Origin: an uncultured Methanosarcinales archaeon
GTDB lineage: Archaea; Nanobdellota; Nanobdellia; Woesearchaeales; UBA12501
Direction: 5' to 3'
NCBI GenBank assembly: GCA_964343705.1
Contig: CAYFJX010000004.1
Span: forward strand, 69,583-133,582
Length of the DNA: 64,000 bases
Below are positions 2,001 through 59,623 of this stretch, piece after piece. The notes beneath the pieces were generated by a model. That model saw only the letters and a program-made list of their open reading frames with translations, was not told where the DNA came from and searched no databases. The position numbers and the translations under genes were made by a program. Numbering within the stretch: the stretch's first letter is position 1; each line of letters begins with the position of its first letter.

Positions 2001-3071
2001 TTATATTCCCTGCAGCATCTGTGTGATGTCTTCGTGTTGTCGAGCATAGGTAAAAGCTGCTTCCATTGCTTTTACTTGTTCGTTCATGCCAAAATGTTCG
2101 TAGGCATTTGCATTCATGGTTGTACGGACAGTGTCTAACTTACCATCAAGATCTGCTCGCGCTTCATCGCTTAGCGGAGCTCTCACATTAAAAACATTAT
2201 CAGGTGTTAACTCTTTTAGTGCTTTTTGTACCTGTTGATTGTACCCTCTCAATGCAACAGCTTTTTGAAACTCTGCAGATCCCATAAGTTTTTGCAGACT
2301 CACAACATACGTGTCTCGTGCATTCACCAGTTTTTCAGCAGTTGTCTCGTCAGTAAGCCGTAAAAATAAGCCTTTGCCTGATGCAGGATTGAGTCGGTAG
2401 CGTTGATTATCTCTTCTTTGATCAAGCCAGGTGATTATAAAATCATTATTTCCTGTAATTTCTTCTTGGATTGCATGAAGCATTTGAGAAGCAAATGGTT
2501 CTCCTTCTTCATGCCGGTGTGCTTGGTCAATTGAGTAGGGGTTTGTTCCTCCACCAAAAACCAGCAAAGCAGAGACAGCAAGGTACAAGTTTTCAGGCAA
2601 GTTTCCTTTTGTTGGTCTGAGACGAGTGGGTAAACTAACTGAGTCACCTGATCCTTGTACAGGGTATGCATACACTCGTAATTCTACCATGCCTTTTTCA
2701 AGGGGTGGGAGTTCATCATTATAACGCCATACATCAAGATCTCTTCCTCTGAGTTCTGTTTTCATACGGCGTGCAATATCTTCATATCCTTGACGTAGTG
2801 CTGGTTGTGGGACAAGCACATAAGACCCTATCATCTTCCTTTCTCTAGCAACTTCTCGTGCTTCAAAAACAGGCTGGCTACCTTCAGGAACAAGGCCTTG
2901 GCCTGCAAGAAATGCAGCTATGTCTTCAAGTGCGTCATTTCCATGATCATTTTCATTCAACCAATCAAGTCCACCATGGGCATAGAACAGCAACTCTTCA
3001 AAGTCACCCTTGTATATTCGTTGATGTGGTGTTTCCAGTTCTGGAACACGCTCAAAAGAAATGTCTGGCAT
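2001..3071 (-). CDS. Hypothetical protein, paralog B of a tandem pair (unknown family)
   Basis: 356 aa. It shares its N-terminal motif and several internal motifs with 908..1951. Confidence 0.55.
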   Translation of the reverse strand: MPDISFERVPELETPHQRIYKGDFEELLFYAHGGLDWLNENDHGNDALEDIAAFLAGQGLVPEGSQPVFEAREVARERKMIGSYVLVPQPALRQGYEDIARRMKTELRGRDLDVWRYNDELPPLEKGMVELRVYAYPVQGSGDSVSLPTRLRPTKGNLPENLYLAVSALLVFGGGTNPYSIDQAHRHEEGEPFASQMLHAIQEEITGNNDFIITWLDQRRDNQRYRLNPASGKGLFLRLTDETTAEKLVNARDTYVVSLQKLMGSAEFQKAVALRGYNQQVQKALKELTPDNVFNVRAPLSDEARADLDGKLDTVRTTMNANAYEHFGMNEQVKAMEAAFTYARQHEDITQMLQGI

Positions 3072-4026: not shown

Positions 4027-5304
4027 TTAATCAACAAATTCTATCCCAAGCTCAGTCTCAATCTCTTTTTTCCGTCGAGTACCAACCTTGCGCTCAGGCC
4101 CAAAGATCTGTGAGGACTTAACACCAGTCACAATAATCAATGTTCTCACAATGTTTTGTAGGTCGTCATTGATCAAGGCTCCCCAGATTATTTTTGCATC
4201 TTCATCAAGTCGTTCAGATACTTTTTCAACAATCTTACGAGCTTCATCTAGTGTCATGTCTGGACCACCAGCAACATTGATCAGTGCTCCATTAGCACCG
4301 CTAATGTCAACATCAAGAAGTGGGTTGGTGATTGCTTTTTCAACTGATTCAAGCGCACGGTTCTCAGTGTCACTTTCCCCTACACCAATCATTGCAACTC
4401 CGCCATTACCCATGATTGCTCGAATGTCTGCAAAGTCAAGGTTTACAAGACCAGCTTTAGTTACTAATTCTGCAACTCCTTTTACTGCGTTGGTAAGAAT
4501 TTCATCTGCAACTTTAAATGATGTATGTAGTGGCAGGTCTGGTGCTAATTCCAGAAGTTTGTCGTTAGGAATAACAATCAGTGTGTCAACAGTGTTTTCA
4601 AGTTTTTCAAGTCCAATCACTGCGTTTTCATATCGTCGTTGTCCTTCCATTGCAAATGGCATGGTCACAATTCCCACTGTGAGTGAGCCAAGTTTTTTAG
4701 CTATTTCTGCGATAACTGGTGCTGAACCTGTTCCAGTTCCCCCACCAAGACCGCATGTAATAAAGATCATATCAGATTCGCGGAGCATTTCTTTAAGTTC
4801 TGCCTCGCTTTCACGAGCAGCGTCTTCTCCAATTTTAGGTATGCTTCCTGCACCCATTCCTCGTGTAATATCCTTGCCAATAAGCAATTTCTTATCAGCA
4901 GTGGTGTACAAAAGATCTTGTGCATCAGTGTTGATTGCAATTGTTTCAGCACCGCGAATACCAACTTCAGCCATTCTGTTGACTGTGTTGTTTCCACCAC
5001 CACCACAGCCAATCACTTTGATCTTAGCTCGTTGGTGTTTGAGCATTTCTTCAAGTTCAAGATCTGCTGATCGTTGCTTTTCTGGTGTAATCTGTTTTGG
5101 AACAGGTGGAGCAGCTGGTTTTACCTCTTCTTTTGGCTTTATAGTAAAGCTAGAAGGTTGTGAAGGAGGCGTCGGCGTACTTGCTGGAGGAGTGTAGAAA
5201 GAACTACCTCCTGTACTACTTGGTGTTGTCGTTGTATTGCTTGTGCTTCCAAATGGTTTGTTAGATTCTTGATTAGGTTGTTGTTGAGAATGATTACTAT
5301 CCAT
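4027..5304 (-). CDS. ftsZ: Cell division GTPase FtsZ with an N-terminal Ser/Thr/Pro-rich low-complexity extension
   Basis: Carries the GGGTGTG tubulin signature and the [19 protein letters not shown]-terminal motif. The ORF is open to 5469, but the start at 5304 (MDSNHSQ) is preferred: it has a ggtgaggtg SD-like sequence 6 nt upstream and a tttatata box further upstream, and the longer ORF would overlap the FKBP gene. Confidence 0.85.
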
Positions 5305-7744: not shown

Positions 7745-7912
7745 GGGGTGTGTCCCGAATCTTGCTTTTTGTGCAGGAGGGATAGCACTGCGAAGGTTAA
7801 CGCTCGCATCCGCTCGCTGATTCTACGTCGGCACCCCTGCATAAATCGGGGTGCCTCCGAACAGACTTCAAGGCAGTGCTATCCCTCAGAAAGACTCTCG
7901 GGACATACCCTC
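7745..7912. repeat. GC-rich nested palindromic element (REP-B family, full copy) filling a divergent intergenic region
   Basis: Three nested inverted-repeat pairs: ggggtgtgtcccga(7745)/tcgggacatacccc(7898), gggatagcactgc(7779)/gcagtgctatccc(7873) and ggcacccc(7830)/ggggtgcc(7848). The right half recurs at 55503..55570. Confidence 0.7.
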
Positions 7913-7955
7913 TTTTTTGGCAAGGCTTAAATACATCCACCCTACACGCTCAATC

Positions 7956-16583: not shown

Positions 16584-16711
16584 CCCTCCATAGCTCAATT
16601 GGTAGAGCGCAGGGCTGTAGATAAACTCACCCACCGACTAGGCATATAGCCATGAATGAAAGTGGGACAGCCGATACCTTGAGGTTCCCGGTTCGAGTCC
16701 GGGTGGGGGGA
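16584..16711 (+). tRNA. tRNA-Tyr (anticodon GTA) with a 55-nt canonical intron (37/38) at 16621..16675
   Basis: Acceptor ccctcca/tgggggg (C1:G72). D arm gctc-aattggta-gagc. Anticodon stem caggg/ccttg with loop ctGTAg|intron|a. T arm cccgg-ttcgagt-ccggg. Discriminator A. Confidence 0.75.
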
Positions 16712-18177: not shown

Positions 18178-20484
18178 TTAACGTGCTTCAACCCAAGCTT
18201 GATATTGATCATGGCGTTCTTTTACATCAGCCATCAATGAGGCAACTGCATCTTGTTTATCACCAGGATGACCAGGAATAAAGTTTGCAGCATTGGTGTG
18301 GTTTACAACTATTAAATTATGTTTTCCTACTGGGAGAATTAAAGAAGGTGTTTCTTGGGCACGCTTCATGATTTCATCTGACCCCACATAGGTTTTCTCA
18401 TGGCTTGCTATGTTCCTAATAGAGTACACTGCAAAGGGTCCGTCTTCACCATTTATTACAGGTGTTGTTTGTAGCCATGCCTGAAGTTCAAGAGGATTTC
18501 CAACCTGCCCAAGATCAGGTGCAGTTACATAAAATATATGTCGTTTGCGTTGATTTCCAATTGTTTGCTTATACACTTCTCCTTTCTTAAGTATGTCATC
18601 TACTCTCCCTCTTGTTATACCTTTTGCTTCACGGAGCTCTTTTGCTGTTACAAGCACTAATCCTTGATGATAATGTATTGCTTGAACCCTTCCAGTAGAC
18701 AGTGGCTCCTCGAGAGTTGGCTCGTGTTGTATAAGAGTGCCATCTGGTTCCATCTTCTGCCTCCAGCGCTGAAATTGTTCATAGCGCTGTCCAACATCAG
18801 CTAAAAGATCCTCAACAAATCCTCCTCTTTTTGTGTTGGTTGATACAAAGTGGCGAGCATTGTCTTTGTTAACAATGAAATATTTGCTTGCTCTTTGTTC
18901 TGAGTGTGTACCAATCACTCTTATTAGGTCTTGTTCAAAAACTTTTTCTAATGCTTCTACAGTTTTCATTCCTGGGATAGTGCCAAGTCTCACTGTGTTA
19001 TATAATGCAAAGGGTGTGTCTATACCAACAAAACGATTTGCCTTAACTTCGGAGAGAAGCTCATTATAACTTGATCCATGGCGTTCGAAAACAGCAGGAA
19101 GTATTTCAGGAGTGAGAAAGTAAACACGTATTGGTCGTTTCTCACCAAACTCTTCAGCATACAATAATCCTCCTTCAATAAGCCTTTGTAATTCCTTGCG
19201 GTTTTTGGTGTCCTTAATTTTGTGGAATACAACGTGGGTTATAGGGAAAAATCCATCTTGGTAACATGCGTCAACCTCATTGTTAAGTGATAAGGTTATT
19301 GAGGGGTTAGTTTTAGGTGGTTCCGGTTCTGTATTTGTTTTTTCTTCAAGACTTGCTGCTTCAGTAGGGGTAGCTGGTATACGAACTGCTGACAAAGCAG
19401 ATATTTCATCTACCTCTCCTGCATCATTCTGTTCTAGTTCTTCATCATGTTGCTCTTCATCAAGTCCTGCTTCATATGCTTCTAATGCTTTTAATTTTTC
19501 CCACAAGTTTTTCCTACTGATTCCAAGGAGTTTGGCAGCTTCTGCTTTTCTTCCTCCTGTGTGGGCGAGTGCAATTTTGATATAGCTAAGCTCTGCCTCA
19601 CGCATAACTTCTACCAACGGTCGAAATCCTCGACGTCTTCTGTATGTTTGTCCACCTGTTAAATCAAGAGAGTTTTGGTCAAAAATAATATGTTGCGCTC
19701 TGAGGCTTTCTCCGTCACTCAAGAGCACTGCCCGTTCAATAATATTTTCTAACTCCCTAACATTCCCACCCCACTCATAATTTTGTAAAATCACAGCTGC
19801 GTTTCCATCAATGCTAGTGACTCTTGTGCCATATTTTTTATTATTCTTAGCAACAAGATATGCGGCAATATCCAAAAGGTCACTTCCCCTATCTCGTAAG
19901 GGAGGTACATGTAATGGGAATACATTCAGTCGGTGAAATAGGTCTTGCCGAAACGTCCCTTTTTCAATTTCCTGCACAAGATCCTTATTTGTTGCTGCAA
20001 GCACACGTACATCAATAGATGCTGTTTGAGTTGCACCAACGGGGACTACTTCTCGTTCTTGTAACACATTAAGCAGCTTTGCTTGCATGTCAGGACTCAT
20101 TTCTGAAACTTCATCAAGGAATATAGTGCCTCTATCAGCTTCTCGGAAATGTCCTTTTCTTGCTTGACTTGCACCAGTAAACGCACCTTTAACATGACCA
20201 AACAATTCTGATTCCATGATTCCCTCAGGAATTGCAGGGCAATTTACATGGACAAACGGATTTTTCTTAGTTTGATTAGCTCCACTAGCATGTAATGCTT
20301 TAGCAATCAGTGTCTTCCCAGTTCCTGTTTCACCTGTAAGCAAAACACTAGCAGGCTTGCCTGCAAGAATGTTAAGAAATTGGTATAACTGCAGCATTGC
20401 AGGGCTTTTTCCTACAATCTCAAGATCTCCATTAATTTTGTAGATTCCCTGCTCAGCGTCATAATTGGCAATATCTCCTGTCAT
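18178..20484 (-). CDS. Sigma-54-interaction-domain AAA+ ATPase (bEBP-like, GAFTGA motif) + Fis-type HTH + duplicated C-terminal domain
   Basis: Walker A is LLTGETGTGKTLIAKA. ESELFGHVKGAFTGAS is the GAFTGA signature. Also has RVLAATNKDL...FRQDLFHRLNVFPLHVPPLRDR and the HTH GGRKAEAAKLLGISRKNLWEKLK. The last ~300 aa form two repeats of about 130 aa (..ADVGQRYEQFQRW.. / ..ADVKERHDQYQAW..). Confidence 0.75.
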   Translation of the reverse strand: MTGDIANYDAEQGIYKINGDLEIVGKSPAMLQLYQFLNILAGKPASVLLTGETGTGKTLIAKALHASGANQTKKNPFVHVNCPAIPEGIMESELFGHVKGAFTGASQARKGHFREADRGTIFLDEVSEMSPDMQAKLLNVLQEREVVPVGATQTASIDVRVLAATNKDLVQEIEKGTFRQDLFHRLNVFPLHVPPLRDRGSDLLDIAAYLVAKNNKKYGTRVTSIDGNAAVILQNYEWGGNVRELENIIERAVLLSDGESLRAQHIIFDQNSLDLTGGQTYRRRRGFRPLVEVMREAELSYIKIALAHTGGRKAEAAKLLGISRKNLWEKLKALEAYEAGLDEEQHDEELEQNDAGEVDEISALSAVRIPATPTEAASLEEKTNTEPEPPKTNPSITLSLNNEVDACYQDGFFPITHVVFHKIKDTKNRKELQRLIEGGLLYAEEFGEKRPIRVYFLTPEILPAVFERHGSSYNELLSEVKANRFVGIDTPFALYNTVRLGTIPGMKTVEALEKVFEQDLIRVIGTHSEQRASKYFIVNKDNARHFVSTNTKRGGFVEDLLADVGQRYEQFQRWRQKMEPDGTLIQHEPTLEEPLSTGRVQAIHYHQGLVLVTAKELREAKGITRGRVDDILKKGEVYKQTIGNQRKRHIFYVTAPDLGQVGNPLELQAWLQTTPVINGEDGPFAVYSIRNIASHEKTYVGSDEIMKRAQETPSLILPVGKHNLIVVNHTNAANFIPGHPGDKQDAVASLMADVKERHDQYQAWVEAR

Positions 20485-38748: not shown

Positions 38749-38806
38749 TCAAAATAATTAAAAATCTTATTTTTCTTTTTCTGACTTTTTGTAGGTGATC
38801 TGACTT

Positions 38807-38927
38807 CAGCAGATTCTACAAAATCAAAGAACATTTCAACTGCACAGATTAATTATTATTTAATCCGCCCTGAAGGGCGGTTAAAACTGTGCAATATAAG
38901 ATTTGATTAAGAAAAAGCTCAGGCTTT
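38807..38927 (-). repeat. REP-A intergenic element, copy 1 (reverse orientation; divergent inner hairpin ccgccc-tgaa-gggcgg)
   Basis: Aligns with the copies at 44728, 48681 and 52591. Shares the outer tgcacag...ctgtgca stem and the flanks ctttgattttgtagaat / cctgagc. Confidence 0.7.
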
Positions 38928-38957
38928 ACCTGATTTTACCTAATTCTCGTTATTTTC

Positions 38958-44665: not shown

Positions 44666-44727
44666 GGGTTGTTGGGGTTATTTGGGGTTTTTATAGTTTG
44701 TTATTGGGTGTGCTTTGGGTAAAATTA

Positions 44728-44862
44728 GTTTCAGCTGGGGCTGTTTCAAAACCATATCTGACATTGCACAGTTTTAACCGGGCCGTGTTCCGGCCCGGAT
44801 TTAACGGCAAAGCCGTTCTATCTGTGCGTTTGAAATACTCTTTGACTTTGAAGAACTTGCAG
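44728..44862 (+). repeat. REP-A intergenic element, copy 2
   Basis: gtttcagctggggctgtttcaaaa...tgcacagttttaaccgggccgtgttccggcccgg...ctgtgcg...ctttgactttgaagaacttgc. Confidence 0.7.
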
Positions 44863-44953
44863 ATGTCAGATCCCAACCGTATCCTGCCTTATTTTTGTTT
44901 CATGCCTTTAACTTGCCGAAATACTTATAAACTATTACAACCTTGCATCTTTC

Positions 44954-47826: not shown

Positions 47827-47954
47827 GGGCTGGTAGTTAAATCTGGTATAACGCTCGGCTGGCAGCCGAGACCGAGACAAACTCGGCGGTTAAGGCTCCG
47901 GGTTCAAATATCCATGGGGGGACTCCTCGGGAATTGAAAGTCCCGGCCAGTCCA
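47827..47954 (+). tRNA. tRNA-Ala (anticodon GGC) with two putative non-canonical introns (variable region and T-loop)
   Basis: Acceptor gggctgg/ccagtcc with G3:U70. Anticodon stem ctcgg/ccgag, loop ctGGCag. ~18-nt insert accgagacaaactcggcg in the variable region. T stem ccggg/cccgg is interrupted after ttcaaa(t) by about 31 nt. Discriminator A. Confidence 0.55.
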
Positions 47955-47978
47955 TATTTTTTTCTTTGATAATAAGGG

Positions 47979-48097
47979 CGCCCGCCCCGGGATTTTCATC
48001 CAAACACTTGTTGTTGCCTAGATTTTGAACCCGGATAGCTGGTAAACCAGCAGCTGGGATCTCAACCCAGTGCAATACCAAGTTATGCGAAGCGGGC
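47979..48097 (-). tRNA. tRNA-Leu (anticodon GAG), class II, with a putative ~31-nt intron in the T-loop
   Basis: Minus-strand acceptor gcccgct/ggcgggc. Anticodon stem ctggg/cccag, loop ttGAGat. Long variable hairpin gctgg-ttta-ccagc. T stem ccggg/cccgg separated by ttcaaa + insert + at. Confidence 0.55.
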
Positions 48098-48157
48098 ATT
48101 TTCATATGGTTCTTATTTAGTTTTACGAAAAATATTTATACTTCATTACATCTAAGT

Positions 48158-48199
48158 GCTTTGGATCTCAACTCAGTGCGTCCAAGTTATACGATGCGC
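48158..48199 (-). pseudogene. Partial tRNA-Leu-like fragment (5' two-thirds: acceptor/D/anticodon arm), degenerate
   Basis: Minus strand ..gcgcatcgtataacttggacgcactgagttgagatccaaag aligns with the tRNA-Leu 5' part (..cgcataacttggtattgcactgggttgagatcccag). Confidence 0.45.
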
Positions 48200-48233
48200 T
48201 TTTTTTCTTTTCATTTTTTCTTTAATTATAATG

Positions 48234-48355
48234 AGGCGAGGGCGGGATTTTCATCCGCGGTAGATACTTCCACTCACACTTTTGAACCCGCGTGATACGG
48301 ATGTATCATCCTGACCTTCAACCAGGTGCCTTAGACCTGACTCGGCCACCTCGCC
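48234..48355 (-). tRNA. Class II tRNA (Ser/Leu-type long variable arm) with a putative T-loop intron; anticodon assignment uncertain
   Basis: Acceptor ggcgagg/cctcgcc is a perfect stem. Anticodon arm cctgg-ttgaagg-tcagg reads GAA under standard framing, which is atypical for class II. Variable hairpin gatac-atcc-gtatc. T stem gcggg/cccgc is interrupted by about 31 nt. Confidence 0.45.
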
Positions 48356-48394
48356 AGATGGAAAATTATTTATAGTTGTATTATTTTACAAGTG

Positions 48395-48446
48395 ATTGGA
48401 TGTATCATCCTGATTTCCAATCAGGTACTTGACCAAACTCAGTCAC
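48395..48446 (-). pseudogene. Partial tRNA-Ser-like fragment (anticodon arm cctga-ttGGAaa-tcagg plus start of variable arm), no T arm or 3' acceptor
   Basis: Shares tcaggatgatacatcc with the adjacent class II tRNA. Confidence 0.45.
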
Positions 48447-48680
48447 TTTTTTTCTTTTTTTCTTTACTTTTCGTATAGTTTTCGAGCTATTTAAGTTCTG
48501 GGTCCACAGATGTCCAGTGTCCAGTGGGTGTTTCGGTTTCGTCGGAAAATTTTCAAAACAGTAGTAGAAGCTTTCTAAAAGATGTCTAGTAAAAGAAATC
48601 GAAGATGTTCTGTTAAAATTCGTAAAGTATCCGGAAAAAAGCCTGTCCAGTAGAAAAACAAAAATGAGTGTGCAAAGTTA

Positions 48681-48812
48681 GTTTCAGCCTGAGCTGTTTC
48701 AAAAACCTTGCCTAACATTGCACAGTTGTAACCGGGTCGGGTTCCGACCCGGATTTAAAATTATTAATCTGTGCATTTGAAAATATTCTTTGATTTTGAT
48801 GAATTTGCTGCC
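48681..48812 (+). repeat. REP-A intergenic element, copy 3
   Basis: gtttcagcctgagctgtttcaaaaa...tgcacagttgtaaccgggtcgggttccgacccgg...ctgtgca...ctttgattttgatgaatttgc. Confidence 0.7.
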
Positions 48813-48910
48813 CCTTATTCACCTACAAAACCCCAGATACCCAGTTTGACCTTACTCCCAAACCCTTACCATCACAAACTATAAAAAGGCTGTATCCTAA
48901 AACTAATTTC

Positions 48911-52114: not shown

Positions 52115-52556
52115 AAACAATGAGTTCCAGCTGATCACAATGACAGGCAAAGACTGCTTATTTTGTAAAATAATCAAAGGAGAACTTCCTTGTTCTAAAA
52201 TCTATGAGGATGAACAAACTTTTGCATTCTTAGATATTAGTCCAGTAAATCCAGGGCATACACTTGTTATCCCAAAAGCGCATTGCAAAAATCTTCTAGA
52301 CATGCCAGAAGATGATGCAGGTGCTGTATACAAGACTGCAAAGAAAGTTGCAATTGCAGTTAAAGAAGGTACTGGCGCAGGAGGCGTTACTGTCACCATG
52401 AGTAATGAGAAACCTGCAGGTCAAGTAGTGTGGCACGCGCATGTTCATGTTATTCCTCGGTTTGAAAATGATGGCTTTAAGTTATGGCCAGGCAAGCCGT
52501 ACAAAGAAGGTCAGCAAGAAGAAATGTTAAAGAGAATTAGTGAGAAATTGAATTAA
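52098..52556 (+). CDS. HIT-family hydrolase (histidine triad)
   Basis: Contains CLFCKII, NPGHTLVIPKAH and the triad WHAHVHVIPR. The start may be internal, MTGKD at 52140. Confidence 0.7.
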   Translation: MRTKHKNNEFQLITMTGKDCLFCKIIKGELPCSKIYEDEQTFAFLDISPVNPGHTLVIPKAHCKNLLDMPEDDAGAVYKTAKKVAIAVKEGTGAGGVTVTMSNEKPAGQVVWHAHVHVIPRFENDGFKLWPGKPYKEGQQEEMLKRISEKLN

Positions 52557-52590
52557 AGAGTATTCTAACTTTTTGTAAGTGAGCTAGGAG

Positions 52591-52722
52591 CGGCAAATTC
52601 TACAAAATCAAAGAGAATTTCAACTGCACAGATTGAATAAATTTAAATCCGGGTCGGAACCCGACCCGGTTAAAACTGTGCATGCTTGATATGATTATGA
52701 AACAGTCCAAGCTGAAACTAAC
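52591..52722 (-). repeat. REP-A intergenic element, copy 4 (reverse orientation)
   Basis: The reverse complement reads gtttcagcttggactgtttcataat...tgcacagttttaaccgggtcgggttccgacccgg...ctgtgcag...ctttgattttgtagaatttgc. Confidence 0.7.
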
Positions 52723-52862
52723 TTTGCTCATTGCTCAAAACAGATTTTTTATCCAGATCTTACCTCTTTCTTTGTCCAGGCTGAAACTGATTCTGCTTTA
52801 TTACTGTTGCTTAAGCACAAAATATATAAAACTAAGACACATTACTCATGTAAGGTGATAGC

Positions 52863-54994: not shown

Positions 54995-55502
54995 TTTTTT
55001 TTATTCTCTTTCCACTTCTTTTTTTTCTTAGTAGTAATCTTCAAAATCGTAGTATGTGTTGTCGTCTAATTCGTGTTCTGCAAGCTCTTCATCAAACTCG
55101 TAATCTATTAGCTTGTCAACACGTGGATGGGCAATCCATTGTTCCCACTCTTCACGTCGCATTGGCATAGTTTACACCCCCATGTAATGCCTTAATTAGG
55201 GTGAATAAAATATAATAAAGTGATGTATATATGGTATAACCAAGGTTTCCTAAACTTTAGGTGATGGTCCTTTTTACTTCCTCAATAAATATCAATCTTT
55301 CGGAACAGACACCGCTATGAAGTGATGGTTGACCTTACCTCGCAGAATTCTTGCTGTAGAACGCTTAATTCGCTTTTTGTTGTTTGAAATTTTTGCGAAC
55401 TTATCTTCAACTCTTTTGGCTCAATTTGGAGAGTGTTACACATTGCTTTTGTAATGAAGCAACATTTTGTTATATGGTCTGCATACCCTCAACATTTTGG
55501 GA

Positions 55503-55570
55503 ATCGGGGTGCCTCCGAACAGACTTCAAGGCAGTGCTACCCCTCAGAAAGACTCTTGGGACACACCCCT
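55503..55570. repeat. REP-B element, half copy (matches 7845..7912 with 3 mismatches in 68 nt)
   Basis: atcggggtgcctccgaacagacttcaaggcagtgctacccctcagaaagactcttgggacacacccct. Internal ggggtg/cacccc inverted repeat. Confidence 0.7.
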
Positions 55571-55695
55571 TTATTTTGTGAGAAATTGCGTCAACCAGAT
55601 CGCGAGAGTTGTTGTTATTCTTAAGTAATTAAAAAAGAAAAACTTATAAATAATCAGCACTTTTCAATACCAAAAAGTATGATTGAGGTATACTC

Positions 55696-55845
55696 ATGTC
55701 ACAAAAGCAATATATCATAACAAAAAAGATAGCCAAACAAGGCGATAAGGCAGTTATCTGTATTCCTGCTTTGCTTCAGGAAGAATTAAAACCTTCAACA
55801 GTTGTGAAAGTAACTATTGACGTAATTAAGGAGGCAGGGCAATGA
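55696..55845 (+). CDS. AbrB/SpoVT-like small DNA-binding protein (49 aa), first gene of a three-gene operon
   Basis: MSQKQYIITKKIAKQGDKAVICIPALLQEELKPSTVVKVTIDVIKEAGQ is a swapped-hairpin-like pattern. Its stop overlaps the next ATG (ATGA). It is too short for the ORF track. Confidence 0.45.
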   Translation: MSQKQYIITKKIAKQGDKAVICIPALLQEELKPSTVVKVTIDVIKEAGQ

Positions 55846-56897
55846 ACGATAATACAAACGACACTTCATTAGTTCCTGTTGATCCTTGGCAAGGAATTTT
55901 GGGACAAGCTTATGATGGTAGTATGGAAAAAGTTTTAAGTGCACATTTTCGCAATGGTTTAGAAGAACTTACTGTTGACGCAAGCACATTAGAGCGACAA
56001 AAATCAAAGCTGGAAGAGTCACGCAGAAAAGATGCTGAAATGCATAAAGTTGCTGTGCTAACTGAAAAAGCAGATTTCAAAGAAAAAAATAGATTGCTTG
56101 CACGATTAACTCGTAAAGTAGTTTTTATAGAACCTGATCATAAACCTTCACTTGAAACGTCTGTTTATGAAAAGGCAGTTGAAGTTGGGCAAACATTGAC
56201 AGAATATCTTGATAATCTTAGAAAGTTTGCTTCACAGTTTTCTGTGCTGGGAGAAAGATATCAAAAACTCTGTGAACAACAAACTGAATTGGAACTGAGA
56301 AGAGAACAGATAGAACGGCGTGCTTCAACATATGAGAATGAAGAAAGATTAACAGCCGATTTTATTGGCAAAGTAACAGGTTATTCTAGTTTAGCAGATG
56401 CTGATCAGGATGCTTTGGCTCAATCTGTCAGAGAAGCGACTAATGGTGTTGATATTAGTGACGAAAATGTAAGAGAAATTTTTGTTCAACAGTTGAAAAG
56501 AGGACAGTTTACTTTGCGTCAAACCCATATTACTGACCAAGCTGATCATGAAGAGATAAGTATACGGCTTGCTTCTGTTTCCAGACAGTTGGAGGGAGTA
56601 AATAAAGATGCTGGAAGGTTGTGGGATCTATATAATCCTGCAAGGACCGAAGCTGTTCATTTAAGTGTAACATATCAGGAATTAAGTTCTGCTGCGGAAA
56701 CAGGAACAGCAATTTATGGTGTTGCACAAATGCTTGGGTCAGCAAGAGAATTATGTGAATCTGCCAGAGAAATGCAAGATGCCTTAGAAGCTGCAGTAGA
56801 AGGGCAGTTGGAAGTATTAAGTGCGTTTAGGGGAGTAAATGATGGAAGAGGATCTTATCAATTATCAACTGGAGACACAAGGAGGGGTGAAGAGTAA
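55842..56897 (+). CDS. Coiled-coil hypothetical protein (351 aa)
   Basis: Long heptad-rich central region. No catalytic motifs. Confidence 0.45.
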   Translation: MNDNTNDTSLVPVDPWQGILGQAYDGSMEKVLSAHFRNGLEELTVDASTLERQKSKLEESRRKDAEMHKVAVLTEKADFKEKNRLLARLTRKVVFIEPDHKPSLETSVYEKAVEVGQTLTEYLDNLRKFASQFSVLGERYQKLCEQQTELELRREQIERRASTYENEERLTADFIGKVTGYSSLADADQDALAQSVREATNGVDISDENVREIFVQQLKRGQFTLRQTHITDQADHEEISIRLASVSRQLEGVNKDAGRLWDLYNPARTEAVHLSVTYQELSSAAETGTAIYGVAQMLGSARELCESAREMQDALEAAVEGQLEVLSAFRGVNDGRGSYQLSTGDTRRGEE

Positions 56898-56898
56898 A

Positions 56899-57912
56899 AT
56901 GGATGAAGTAAGATTTCCTACGATTGTTAGTGTGATTAGTGAAAAGTTTGGTGCTTATACCAAGGCTTTAACTGAAGCGCAGAACTTAGCTGGCAGAGAC
57001 GAGTTAGATGCTGATGAACGAAGAAGATTTGATGAGTTGATGCAACATTTAAGAAAAGATGAAGCGACTGCTGGTTTGCTTTCCTCTGAGCAGCGTGTTG
57101 GTCTTGATGCTGTTTTTGATGCTCATGTACAATTATCAAATGTTCCTTTTCCTGCTTGTATCAGTAAGATCACCCAAAACTATGTTGTTTTGAATAATAT
57201 TAGGCCTGTTGATGCTGATGATACTGTTCTTTGGAGTCATCCTAAGCTGTATATTCCTAAAAACATTATTAAGGATGCGAATGGCAATCACGTTAATAAA
57301 ACCCCTTATGAGTGGGCTGTTTTTTTTGAACAACAAGAGCAAAATGGCTGGTTTTTACCAAGTCCTGCAGACACTTGTAACATTCTGGCTGTTTTGTTTA
57401 AAAATAGGGAGGATAAGGAAGTAAGAAGAGTGTTTATGCAGTATAAAGACCAAGGCTATGGTTCTGGCCTGCACGCTCAGAATGGCCTTGTTGATTTTGG
57501 TGTAAGGCAATTTATTCATTACCCTAATGCTGCTGATTTTGGTAAGTCGGGAAGTGTTAATGCTGGCAGGAGAAGAACTGCTTTAAGTTTTGACAAGTTT
57601 GTTTTGCGAAGTGAGAGGTTAGAGGATGCCTTGCGTGTTCCTGAAAAAGCAAGGTATGTTCGGCAGTGGAGTTGTTTAAAAGATCCTTCTGTTTTGGTTG
57701 AGATTGGAGAGGAGTATGGCAATCCTGCTAGGTTGTGGTTTCCTTGGAACAGAAAGAATAGTACAGGATATAACAAGAAAATGCTGGCCTGGGTTGGTCA
57801 CATCGCCGATATCTTCACACTTTATGCCAGCGGCAATCTTTCCTTCTATTATGCTACTCGTGGGGTACTTCAGGCGCCGCAGGCGCGCAAACGAAAAAAT
57901 AGTTCCACCTGA
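56899..57912 (+). CDS. Hypothetical protein (338 aa) with Cys...His...Asp order suggestive of a papain/transglutaminase-like fold (speculative)
   Basis: PADTCNILAV ... WVGHIADIF ... D. The ATG is 2 nt after the stop of the previous gene. Confidence 0.4.
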   Translation: MDEVRFPTIVSVISEKFGAYTKALTEAQNLAGRDELDADERRRFDELMQHLRKDEATAGLLSSEQRVGLDAVFDAHVQLSNVPFPACISKITQNYVVLNNIRPVDADDTVLWSHPKLYIPKNIIKDANGNHVNKTPYEWAVFFEQQEQNGWFLPSPADTCNILAVLFKNREDKEVRRVFMQYKDQGYGSGLHAQNGLVDFGVRQFIHYPNAADFGKSGSVNAGRRRTALSFDKFVLRSERLEDALRVPEKARYVRQWSCLKDPSVLVEIGEEYGNPARLWFPWNRKNSTGYNKKMLAWVGHIADIFTLYASGNLSFYYATRGVLQAPQARKRKNSST

Positions 57913-58397
57913 AATAAAGGTTAGGTAAATCTTTATAAACACCAGCAACTTCTTTATTTTTGTCCTCATTGCTCTACTTCTTTGGTGGAACGGCATGGGC
58001 TCTACACGTCTCTTTGCTAGCGCCTCTTATTCAAGAGGACATAAAATTCAACCACAACAGCAAATGCCTGAAGTGGTGGTGCTAGAAACAGCAAGGAGGC
58101 TACTTAAGGGCGGCCTGGCTCGGTTGCAGCAACAATAACTTCAACCTTAATGCCAACAACAATCTTAACAGCAATAATACTGCTCGTGGAATAGCCCTAC
58201 CTCAGCGAGGACTTTTCTTTAAACTATTTAAGAGAGTTCTCTTCCCAATCACTAAAGCTAGTTTTCAGTTCAATAACATCATTTTCGAGATTTTTCAGTC
58301 CATCCAAAAGCTCTTTATAGTCCATACATGTCAGGTATAAATTAGAACTTTTAAAATTTTCTTCTATTTATGTTATCTAGGGTAGCTACCTGCTAGA

Positions 58398-58485
58398 ATC
58401 AGCTTGCCGCTCAAGCTCTAACTTCTTAGCGATTGCAGCAGAATTATTACTTAGGTTGAAAGCATGTGTGATCTCGTCAGCAAGG
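58398..58485. repeat. 88-bp exact direct repeat of the rps7 3'-terminal coding sequence (second copy at 59036..59123)
   Basis: Identical 88-mer atcagcttgccgctcaag...ctcgtcagcaagg. Flanking codons at both copies encode SSR-stop using different codons. Confidence 0.8.
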
Positions 58486-58492
58486 TACTTGA

Positions 58493-58615
58493 CTATAGCT
58501 TACCTATTGCTTCAAGAATCTTTTCATGTCCTTTGACTAAACTCATAAATCGATCTAGTTCATGTGATACAATTTTATATGCTTCTTTATCTTTTAAATT
58601 CTCTGATTTTGCCAT
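58493..58615 (-). CDS. Small ORF (40 aa), possible antitoxin partner of the Fic/Doc gene
   Basis: MAKSENLKDKEAYKIVSHELDRFMSLVKGHEKILEAIGKL. Overlaps the 3' end of the Doc gene by 29 nt. Confidence 0.3.
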   Translation of the reverse strand: MAKSENLKDKEAYKIVSHELDRFMSLVKGHEKILEAIGKL

Positions 58616-59023: not shown

Positions 59024-59623
59024 TTATCGACTACTATCAGCTTGCCGCTCAAGCTCTAACTTCTTAGCGATTGCAGCAGAATTATTACTTAGGTTGAAAG
59101 CATGTGTGATCTCGTCAGCAAGGCAGTCAACCATTGACTTTTTTCCATTGAAACTTTTGTGGAATGAACCTTGTGCCATAACACGTAGTGCAAAATCAAT
59201 GCGTCGTTGTGGTGAGCACTCAACTGCCTTTGGGTATCGAGCTCCACCATATTCAATGGTGATGATCTCTTCTCGTGGTGCAGCGTTTTCAATTGCTTTT
59301 ACCAGTGCTTCAACAGGGTTCTTGCCTGTTTTTTGCTCAACTTTGATAAGTGCTTTTTTGAGAATGTCTGCAGCAGTAGCATACTTGCCGGTGATACGGC
59401 CAGAGCTTTTGAAGTGTTTTTTGCTCTTGTGACCAGGTACCATTAGTTTGTTGATAAGTCGTTCAACAATAAATGACTTTGATTTGTGGAATCTGCTTCC
59501 TGCGTATTTTCCAGAACTCTTTGGTACAATACGTGGTTCTAAACAGATGTAATCTTTAAGCCCAAGGTCTTCTACTACGATATCTGTGGTAGGCCACTTG
59601 TTGAATGCTAATACTTCAGTCAT
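59024..59623 (-). CDS. rps7: 30S ribosomal protein S7 (uS7)
   Basis: 199 aa ending KAVECSPQRRIDFALRVMAQG. Typical archaeal uS7. Confidence 0.85.
   Translation of the reverse strand: MTEVLAFNKWPTTDIVVEDLGLKDYICLEPRIVPKSSGKYAGSRFHKSKSFIVERLINKLMVPGHKSKKHFKSSGRITGKYATAADILKKALIKVEQKTGKNPVEALVKAIENAAPREEIITIEYGGARYPKAVECSPQRRIDFALRVMAQGSFHKSFNGKKSMVDCLADEITHAFNLSNNSAAIAKKLELERQADSSR

Follow-up and report, generated by a model that had tools for sequence, protein, structure and literature searches.

A cluster of tRNA genes with T-loop introns and upstream 5' partial tRNA copies in a Woesearchaeota-like archaeal chromosome

The question raised by the locus described here is whether a group of tRNA-like sequences that standard tRNA finders pass over are genes, and what the partial tRNA copies lying between them represent. 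The tRNA cluster occupies positions 47,827-48,452 of the window, by which we mean the whole 64,000-nucleotide stretch of DNA that was analysed (contig CAYFJX010000004.1, assembly GCA_964343705.1), and the contig is Woesearchaeota-like (DPANN). An earlier note on this DNA had described three tRNAs disrupted by inserts, two upstream 5' partial copies, and a class II tRNA with a GAA anticodon, and these elements are present at, or a few bases off, the positions it gave. We consider it likely that the cluster consists of three disrupted tRNA genes spliced at bulge-helix-bulge (BHB) motifs, accompanied by relics of recombination, and that the GAA tRNA is a paralogue, changed in its anticodon, of a class II tRNA of the Ser(GGA) type, whose presumed older GGA state the upstream relic keeps.

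The window has a composition of 39.8% G+C and is archaeal chromosomal DNA, with a coding content that includes a thermosome, Rad50, histones, and an archaeal-type GluRS. The homologues of the flanking PD-(D/E)XK nuclease carry the source names Woesearchaeota or Nanoarchaeota, which indicates that the host is a DPANN archaeon of that group. The contig was found in two ENA assemblies (project PRJEB17505) with the cluster base-for-base the same in both, and the agreement of two independent assemblies excludes an assembly artefact.

With default settings, ARAGORN reported zero tRNAs in the whole 64-kb window, and Rfam at the gathering score returned a tRNA-Tyr and an RT-16 RNA and nothing else. 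The tRNA-Tyr(GUA) gene (16584-16711, plus strand), the sole window tRNA recovered by standard tools, contains a 55-nt canonical intron at 37/38 (ARAGORN); the organism must therefore splice tRNAs, which implies an endonuclease. Used permissively, the Rfam tRNA model treated 34 nt in the T-loop as an insertion and thereby scored 40.8 bits at 48234-48355 (minus strand); its scores for the Ala and GAG genes and for the Ser-type fragment upstream were sub-threshold. Running ARAGORN with relaxed scores and long-intron options gave spurious calls only. After removal of the inserts, ARAGORN called a tRNA-Ala(GGC), a class II tRNA(GAG), and a class II tRNA(GAA), which bears out the claim that the three fold only without T-loop inserts of about 30 nt. 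ARAGORN misses these genes because each of them has a 31- to 33-nt insert between T-loop positions 59 and 60, and introns at this position thus conceal tRNA genes both from ARAGORN and from the Rfam threshold.

We scanned both strands for BHB motifs in which the central helix has 4 bp, each of its strands is followed on the 3' side by a bulge of 3 nt, and the cut falls behind the second base of the bulge. The earlier note had proposed such a search at the exon-intron junctions, and a motif with two 3-nt bulges and a 4-bp helix was found at all four, the weakest being the one at position 43/44 of the Ala gene. The T-loop motif lies at the same place in all three genes; the T stem forms the outer helix, the bulges read AA^N (the caret marking the cleavage site), and the central helix is formed by UUCA (T-loop positions 54-57) together with a UGAA at the insert's 3' end. 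The GAG-tRNA intron (47993-48023, minus strand; 31 nt) has a strict hBHBh' structure with outer, central, and inner helices of 6, 4, and 8 bp. The second intron of the Ala gene (47909-47940, plus strand; 32 nt) has a 5-bp outer and a 2-bp inner helix (ccgggUUCA[AA^U]..UGAA[AG^U]cccgg, bulges in brackets), and the GAA-tRNA intron (48248-48280, minus strand; 33 nt) is relaxed, with 5 outer and 0 inner bp (gcgggUUCA[AA^A]..UGAA[AA^U]cccgc). Isolated T arms of the Ala and GAA genes fold into the BHB motif, and the T-arm/BHB sequence, GGGUUCAAA...UGAAARUCCC, is nearly common to the three neighbouring genes. Once the inserts are removed, all three genes have the 7-nt T-loop UUCAAAU and canonical, clean cloverleaves. 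A whole-window scan for the T-loop BHB geometry gave 6 matches, and only the 3 in the cluster result in tRNAs. The BHB geometry and the restored cloverleaves are thus features of the sequence itself.

The tRNA-Ala(GGC) gene (47827-47954, plus strand) is 128 nt long, contains two introns, and yields a mature tRNA of 74 nt with the G3:U70 pair, A73, and NGC anticodon of a tRNA-Ala. Its first intron (47871-47892, plus strand; 22 nt) lies at 43/44, or at 44/45 since there is an A on both sides, and has a relaxed BHB without an outer helix, GCCG[AG^A]ccgag...ctcggCGGU[UA^A], in which GCCG/CGGU form a 4-bp central helix and CCGAG/CUCGG a 5-bp inner helix. The minimum free energy fold of the whole Ala precursor consists of the cloverleaf, the intron hairpin, and the T-arm BHB. 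As had been claimed, a variable-region insert has to be removed from this gene, and the AGGCU variable loop that results matches that of a syntenic relative (see below). Variable-arm introns are not a general trait of the cluster: the Ala gene alone has one, and the long arms of the other two tRNAs are genuine variable arms. The sole BHB candidate that would turn the GAG-tRNA long arm into an intron was rejected, as it would excise the 3' strand of the anticodon stem. A look by eye around the variable arms of two related loci, L056 and L014, revealed no BHB.

Given this geometry, each gene would be transcribed as a precursor in which the T stem, the UUCA/UGAA pairing, and the two 3-nt bulges would make up a BHB equivalent to that of the canonical anticodon-loop intron, shifted to 59/60. 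The archaeal splicing endonuclease would cut each bulge behind its second base, and ligation of the exons by an RNA ligase would produce the 7-nt UUCAAAU loop; the Ala precursor would also lose its relaxed-BHB intron at 43/44.

Introns of this type have been described elsewhere. An hBH intron at 59/60 has been published for the pre-tRNA-Cys of ARMAN-2, and DPANN endonucleases with a specific loop have been linked to increased tRNA gene disruption (PMC5829648, PMC4033280). The introns in the window resemble the published ones in their T-loop position, in the strict or relaxed BHB logic, in the DPANN host, in being short (20-35 nt), and in numbering up to two per gene. They differ in that the host belongs to a Woesearchaeota-like lineage and not to Micrarchaeota or Crenarchaeota, and in that nearly one T-arm/BHB sequence is present in three neighbouring genes; for the Ala intron at 43/44, a published counterpart could not be confirmed in the literature consulted. 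To see how widespread the T-loop signature is, we searched GTDB, one genome per species, with the pattern GGGTTCAAAA-N15-45-TGAAAATCCC. The pattern matches at least 120 stretches, and those among the matches listed are mostly from archaeal metagenome-assembled genomes of Micrarchaeota, Bathyarchaeia, Asgard lineages, Woesearchaeota, Thermoplasmatota, and others. With the inserts removed by the rule used for the window, 90 of 120 among the matches listed became tRNAs of many isotypes, so that one short pattern retrieves at least 90 T-loop-intron tRNA genes across archaeal phyla. Since a 59/60 intron is published for ARMAN-2 and the signature is common in archaeal metagenome-assembled genomes, the inserts are non-canonical archaeal BHB introns of a known kind, ordinary for the lineage; this agrees with the statement that such introns are expected in some archaeal lineages, disrupted tRNA genes being documented for DPANN and Woesearchaeota. 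'Missing' tRNAs have been reported for Nanobdellota genomes (bioRxiv 10.64898/2026.05.13.725050), and these could partly be T-loop-intron genes.

We compared the cluster with its relatives L125, L126, and L127, of which L125 (GCA_053532235.1) alone is syntenic. This closest locus shares with the window the gene order hydrolase / nuclease / histone / GluRS / DUF1385, and its nuclease is 68% identical; in the protein database searched, no nuclease homologue was closer than this, an identical protein aside. The same intergenic gap of L125 holds one intron-less tRNA-Ala(GGC) (about 2518-2590, minus strand), with its orientation to the nuclease kept, and beyond this gene the gap contains no class II tRNAs, no fragments, and nothing tRNA-like. 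Most stem sequences differ between the two tRNA-Ala genes. The spliced Ala tRNA of the window aligns end to end with the L125 orthologue, and the variable loop AGGCU is identical in both, which supports the exon boundaries of the Ala gene. The Ala introns, both class II genes, and the fragments differ between the window and L125 lineages, and the intron-less state of the L125 gene implies gain or loss of both Ala introns after the two lineages had diverged.

Upstream of each minus-strand tRNA gene lies a degenerate copy of its own 5' part, as the earlier note had claimed, with an identity of 78-84% to the gene, far above that of shuffled sequences. The Ser-type fragment (fragment S; 48392-48446, minus strand) is a copy of positions ~7-57 of the class II GAA tRNA with an anticodon loop UUGGAAA (GGA). 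It aligns to the GAA gene with a score of 58 (shuffles, 16.6 ± 2.7) and 45 of 58 columns identical, and the two share an identical 16-mer, UCAGGAUGAUACAUCC. Its anticodon stem is intact, and its D stem is kept through the changes G10-C25 to A10-U25 and C12-G23 to U12-A23; the segment at about 48395-48446 thus has the clean Ser-GGA anticodon arm, with a perfect stem, that had been ascribed to it. The combination of a perfect anticodon stem, a canonical Ser loop, and a doubly substituted D stem indicates that fragment S goes back to a separate copy of the gene that was functional at one time, and not to a recent, imprecise duplication. The Leu-type fragment (fragment L; 48163-48198, minus strand), which corresponds to the Leu-5'-like segment noticed at about 48158-48199, is a degenerate copy of positions ~4-40 of the GAG tRNA with the gene's own anticodon loop, UUGAGAU, and partly broken stems, and aligns to the GAG gene with a score of 48 (shuffles, 18.4 ± 3.2; 32 of 38 columns identical). 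Compared to shuffled sequences, fragment L folds no better (z = -0.3) and fragment S has a z of -1.6. Cross-comparisons of each fragment with the other gene gave background scores, each fragment matching its own gene only. The Ala gene has no such 5' copy, and no further copies were found in the whole window.

Neither fragment has a T arm or the 5' strand of the acceptor stem, and both begin abruptly after an A-rich run read directly 5' of them in the sequence (48201-48220 on the minus strand for fragment L, a T-run on the plus strand, and 48447-48463 on the minus strand for fragment S). Their 3' ends are 31-62 nt from the intact gene and lie beside its AT-rich promoter region; the 31-nt spacer between fragment S and the GAA gene contains a TATA-like AAAATAAT at -32 to -25. 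An independent Woesearchaeon shows this arrangement too: in L056, to which the metagenome locus L140 is identical, an A-rich run is followed by a copy of positions ~5-40 (~4639-4675, plus strand) with the anticodon UAC of its gene, a 39-nt AT-rich spacer, and the intact T-loop-intron tRNA gene (~4715-4830). Weaker candidates for 5' copies were seen upstream of tRNAs in L085 and L062, and a flank scan of L012, L096, and L014 gave no upstream match to the own 5' part scoring at least 30 (median best score 25). A separate observation is that the T-loop intron of the GAA tRNA (48248-48280, minus strand) aligns, with many gaps, over the full length of fragment S and its A-run (48392-48463, minus strand; score 34; shuffles, 18.6 ± 3.5); this similarity is absent for the GAG gene and for L056.

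Most likely, we infer, the fragments are relics of recombination, and the suggestion of an integration or recombination scar remains the best available reading of them. They would be non-functional, and may represent the 5' part of a former resident gene that has been displaced, or may have originated in an att-like duplication whose intervening DNA was deleted down to the promoter. The published precedent is tRNA-Thr-F of Caldiarchaeum subterraneum, a 5' fragment of tRNA-Thr(GGU) upstream of the intron-gaining tRNA-Thr-II, for which site-specific integration of an element whose attP contained an intron, and a later recombination, were given as the explanation (Sugahara et al. 2012, PMC3293823). 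Both there and here, a 5' partial copy stands as a direct repeat upstream of an intact, intron-containing gene of the same type. The Caldiarchaeum copies are separated by a 1.8-kb element with a recombinase gene, whereas those in the window are separated by 31-62 nt of promoter-like DNA with no recombinase near; and the Caldiarchaeum fragment shows no difference from positions 1-27 of tRNA-Thr-I, the other allele, whereas the fragments here are 16-22% diverged and lack positions 1 to ~4-7. Of the features of an att-site duplication, the 16-nt identical core is present in the Ser-type pair, and neither an integrase element between the repeats nor a matching attP was found. The stumps beside intact genes in two Woesearchaeota extend what has been a single published case of intron gain, recombination, and a tRNA fragment.

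Two functional interpretations of the fragments were weighed against a recombination origin. The fragments could give rise to short antisense anti-tRNA RNAs, transcribed from the AT-rich spacer and ending at the T-run, or could serve as decoys or protein-binding regulatory sites. Oligo-T is the usual archaeal termination signal, and the A-run on the tRNA strand would become oligo-T in an antisense copy; the same geometry, an A-run and a fragment abutting the promoter region, occurs three times (two in the window, one in L056), and fragment S retains its anticodon stem and D-stem pairing. The broken stems of fragment L and the folding scores of both fragments speak against such a role, as do an identity to the gene of merely 78-84%, the lack of an equivalent in L125, and the flank scan results for L012, L096, and L014, and we regard it as quite improbable. 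The other possibility is that the GGA fragment and the GAA gene are alternative 5' exons that share a 3' part and are cis- or trans-spliced into two tRNAs. The two have different anticodons, and a BHB-like pairing of their anticodon arms can be drawn (5' site after 48415, 3' site after 48316; outer and inner helices of 5 bp each). This pairing is automatic for homologous stem-loops, and its central helix consists of three G-U pairs and one A-U pair. We rejected splicing at 48415/48316 on its product, which would have AAAAAAG opposite CCUCGCC and hence no acceptor stem. The TATA-like AAAATAAT would also place the fragment upstream of the gene's own transcription start, and the Leu-type and L056 fragments share the anticodons of their genes, so that they would add nothing; alternative exons are thus very unlikely. 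Split or tri-split tRNAs, known from Nanoarchaeum equitans and Caldivirga maquilingensis (a tri-split tRNA-Gly occurs in Caldivirga), resemble the cluster in being archaeal, or DPANN, tRNA pieces that are separately encoded and joined through a BHB. Real halves have an acceptor strand and a complementary, BHB-forming leader, whereas the fragments here have neither, with no complement to CCUCGCC or GGCGGGC, and adjoin a complete gene. The proposal of split or alternative tRNA halves therefore fails, with AAAAAAG standing where GGCGAGG is needed, the T arm absent, and no partner half seen.

The class II (long-variable-arm) tRNA(GAG) gene (47979-48097, minus strand) is 119 nt long and 88 nt after splicing, with G73, A37, a 4-bp D stem, and a short variable arm. 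Its former label of Leu-GAG holds for the anticodon and does not hold for the body, which has G73 and a 4-bp D stem instead of A73. Characterised archaeal tRNA-Leu requires A73, and G73 is an antideterminant that blocks the LeuRS of H. volcanii (PMC9976931); the GAG gene thus departs from the Haloferax-type tRNA-Leu, which combines A73 with a long variable arm. The same design, with G73, a 4-bp D stem, and a T-loop intron, was found with GAG or CAG anticodons in L012, L062, L096, L133, L135, L139, and L141 (genomes and metagenomes), and the family traits are a Woesearchaeota-type long variable arm, G73, a GCCGGNG acceptor stem, a 4-bp D stem, and the 59/60 intron. The G73 design also occurs with class I anticodons, namely GAA (L014), UAC (L056 = L140), and GCG (L136), corresponding to Phe, Val, and Arg. 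At the GCG locus L136, promoter and tRNA (~190 bp) duplicate the GAG gene of L135/L139 except for one anticodon base, A35 having become C; it thus seems that long-variable-arm tRNAs in this group have repeatedly shifted anticodon.

To assess how CUY and UUY codons are read, we aligned window proteins to the M. maripaludis chaperonin (3kfb) and the M. thermautotrophicus GluRS (3aii), which are PDB sequences from distant, non-DPANN organisms. The 51 CTY codons stood opposite 24 Leu, 10 Ile, 9 Val, 3 Met, 1 Ser, and 4 other residues, and the 37 TTY codons opposite 11 Phe, 6 Tyr, 2 Trp, 5 Leu, 1 Ser, and 12 others. A codon alignment with the nuclease homologues agrees and is partly circular, since these homologues are DPANN conceptual translations. 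The alignments to the methanogen homologues show no reassignment of UUY or CUY codons, and as judged from them the code is standard, with UUY as Phe, CUY as Leu, and no bulk reassignment. Since CTY aligns with Leu, Ile, and Val, and the G73 design carries GAG or CAG in several Woesearchaeota, the window GAG gene is most simply read as a Leu(CUY) tRNA, and is probably that of the lineage, with a non-textbook discriminator.

The class II tRNA(GAA) gene (48234-48355, minus strand; 122 nt, 89 nt spliced) has a loop UUGAAGG, G37, U73, and a 6-bp variable stem. The unexpected GAA anticodon in a class II gene was confirmed, as the Rfam alignment and ARAGORN give the same reading. The body is of another class II type than that of the GAG gene, with a 3-bp D stem and the 6-bp variable stem, and is Ser(NGA)- or Leu-like. 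The identity set of archaeal tRNA-Phe comprises A73, G20, and C13-G22 (PMC9976931), and of the tRNA-Phe features the GAA anticodon alone fits, the gene having U73, U20, G13/A22, and the 6-bp variable stem. Its discriminator, U73, is neither the G73 of Ser nor the A73 of Leu and Phe. The gene thus combines a long variable arm of the Ser/Leu type with a class I anticodon, as do bacterial allo-tRNAs and yeast tRNA-Ser(CAG). Its closest analogues are the nematode nev-tRNAs, in which a Ser/Leu-class long variable arm is likewise joined to a class I anticodon (PMC4033280); the GAA gene differs from them in being archaeal, in its interruption by a T-loop intron, in its U73, and in a codon comparison without reassignment. 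With UUY still decoded as Phe and CUY as Leu in this genome, a by-product of evolution, with charging that may be weakened or altered by U73, seems to us a more probable description of the GAA tRNA than a dedicated recoding device.

The opposite view is that the tRNA(GAA) functions in translation as an ambiguous decoder like the nev- or allo-tRNAs, delivering Ser or Leu at Phe codons, and that the relic documents its origin from tRNA-Ser(GGA). The perfect cloverleaf and BHB favour it, as do G37 beside A36, as in readers of UUY and UUR, the related DPANN loci with long variable arms and the class I anticodons GAA (L014), UAC (L056), and GCG (L136), the nematode precedent (PMC4033280), and the fact that serine identity rests on the variable arm and not on the anticodon (PMC9976931). 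In the distant homologues, however, TTY codons stand opposite Phe, Tyr, and Trp, with Ser in only 1 of 37, so that any such decoding would be minor; U73 matches neither tRNA-Ser nor tRNA-Leu and tRNA-Phe, and the gene has been seen in one genome only. We therefore consider a working decoder unlikely. A broader proposal, to which we give the same low credence, is that DPANN archaea have a class of long-variable-arm tRNAs of their own that moved to class I codons, spreading as promoter-plus-tRNA cassettes by recombination into resident tRNA genes and leaving 5' stumps, with the window GAA gene as a working Ser- or Leu-charged decoder of Phe codons. If true, the gene would be an archaeal counterpart of nev- and allo-tRNAs standing beside its ancestral GGA copy. 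The Phe anticodon on a structurally intact class II tRNA, and G73 in tRNAs with a Leu anticodon, indicate that textbook identity rules may fail in this lineage. Finally, the three loci could be decaying tRNA pseudogenes or assembly artefacts with junk inserts, which would agree with their rejection by standard finders, their unusual discriminator bases, and the absence of a CCA end. The sequence is, however, identical in two independent assemblies, all stems are intact, the inserts occupy exactly the same position with BHB geometry in three genes, the same design recurs in at least 90 tRNAs of many archaeal phyla, and the Ala gene retains G3:U70 and A73, which makes this explanation extremely improbable.

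Several points weigh against the interpretation of the cluster as three BHB-spliced genes with recombination relics. Expression and splicing are inferred, with cleavage and ligation taken from known enzymology; the splicing endonuclease is a presumed one, the family-library scan having reached about 30 of the 67 window open reading frames (ORFs) of at least 120 aa. The Ala 43/44 BHB has no outer helix and is in competition with the anticodon stem. The GAA gene is structurally flawless, with all stems and the BHB intact, and its G37 suits a reader of UUY, which argues for selection and against a by-product. As for the relics, Pfam scans of the neighbouring ORFs tested revealed no integrase, and BLAST searches against phage and plasmid collections were empty, giving no viral or plasmid counterpart. 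A search of IMG/VR for an attP or donor with the T-loop pattern gave 4 matches and 0 tRNAs; the 16-mer core had 22 chance matches in viral sequences, with no extended similarity, and the Leu-type pattern had 0. These negative results and the distance of only 31-62 nt between fragment and gene leave the relic model incomplete, and all three fragments (two in the window, one in L056) start at tRNA position ~4-8 after an A-run, an abrupt start that simple attB x attP integration would not predict.

Other features of the window include a ~170-nt repeat with four intergenic copies (38770-38950 and 52555-52745 on the plus strand, 44700-44870 and 48665-48840 on the minus strand; mean column identity 75%), one of them directly beside the tRNA cluster. 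The repeat forms a long hairpin, TGCACAG...CTGTGCA, around a G+C-rich inner stem that covaries between copies (CCGCCC/GGGCGG vs CCGGGTCGG/CCGACCCGG); it has no Rfam match and could be a miniature inverted-repeat transposable element or a structured small RNA. The RT-16 RNA detected by Rfam (57965-58108, plus strand; 71.7 bits), a motif that owes its name to an association with genes for reverse transcriptase, follows closely downstream of two ORFs that lack a Pfam match (55842-56897 and 56839-57912). The gene at 18178-20484 (minus strand) encodes a 768-aa protein whose N-terminal ~335 residues match the AAA+ domain of bacterial sigma-54-dependent activators (NorR model, 337 bits, below the cut-off); to our knowledge archaea have no sigma-54, and the match is hence unexpected. 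Two further repeat pairs are present, one of 75 nt with 92% identity (7844-7918 and 55502-55576) and one of 104 nt with 93% identity (58393-58496 and 59031-59134), one copy of the latter overlapping the 3' end of the ribosomal protein S7 gene and the other lying beyond a Fic-domain ORF.

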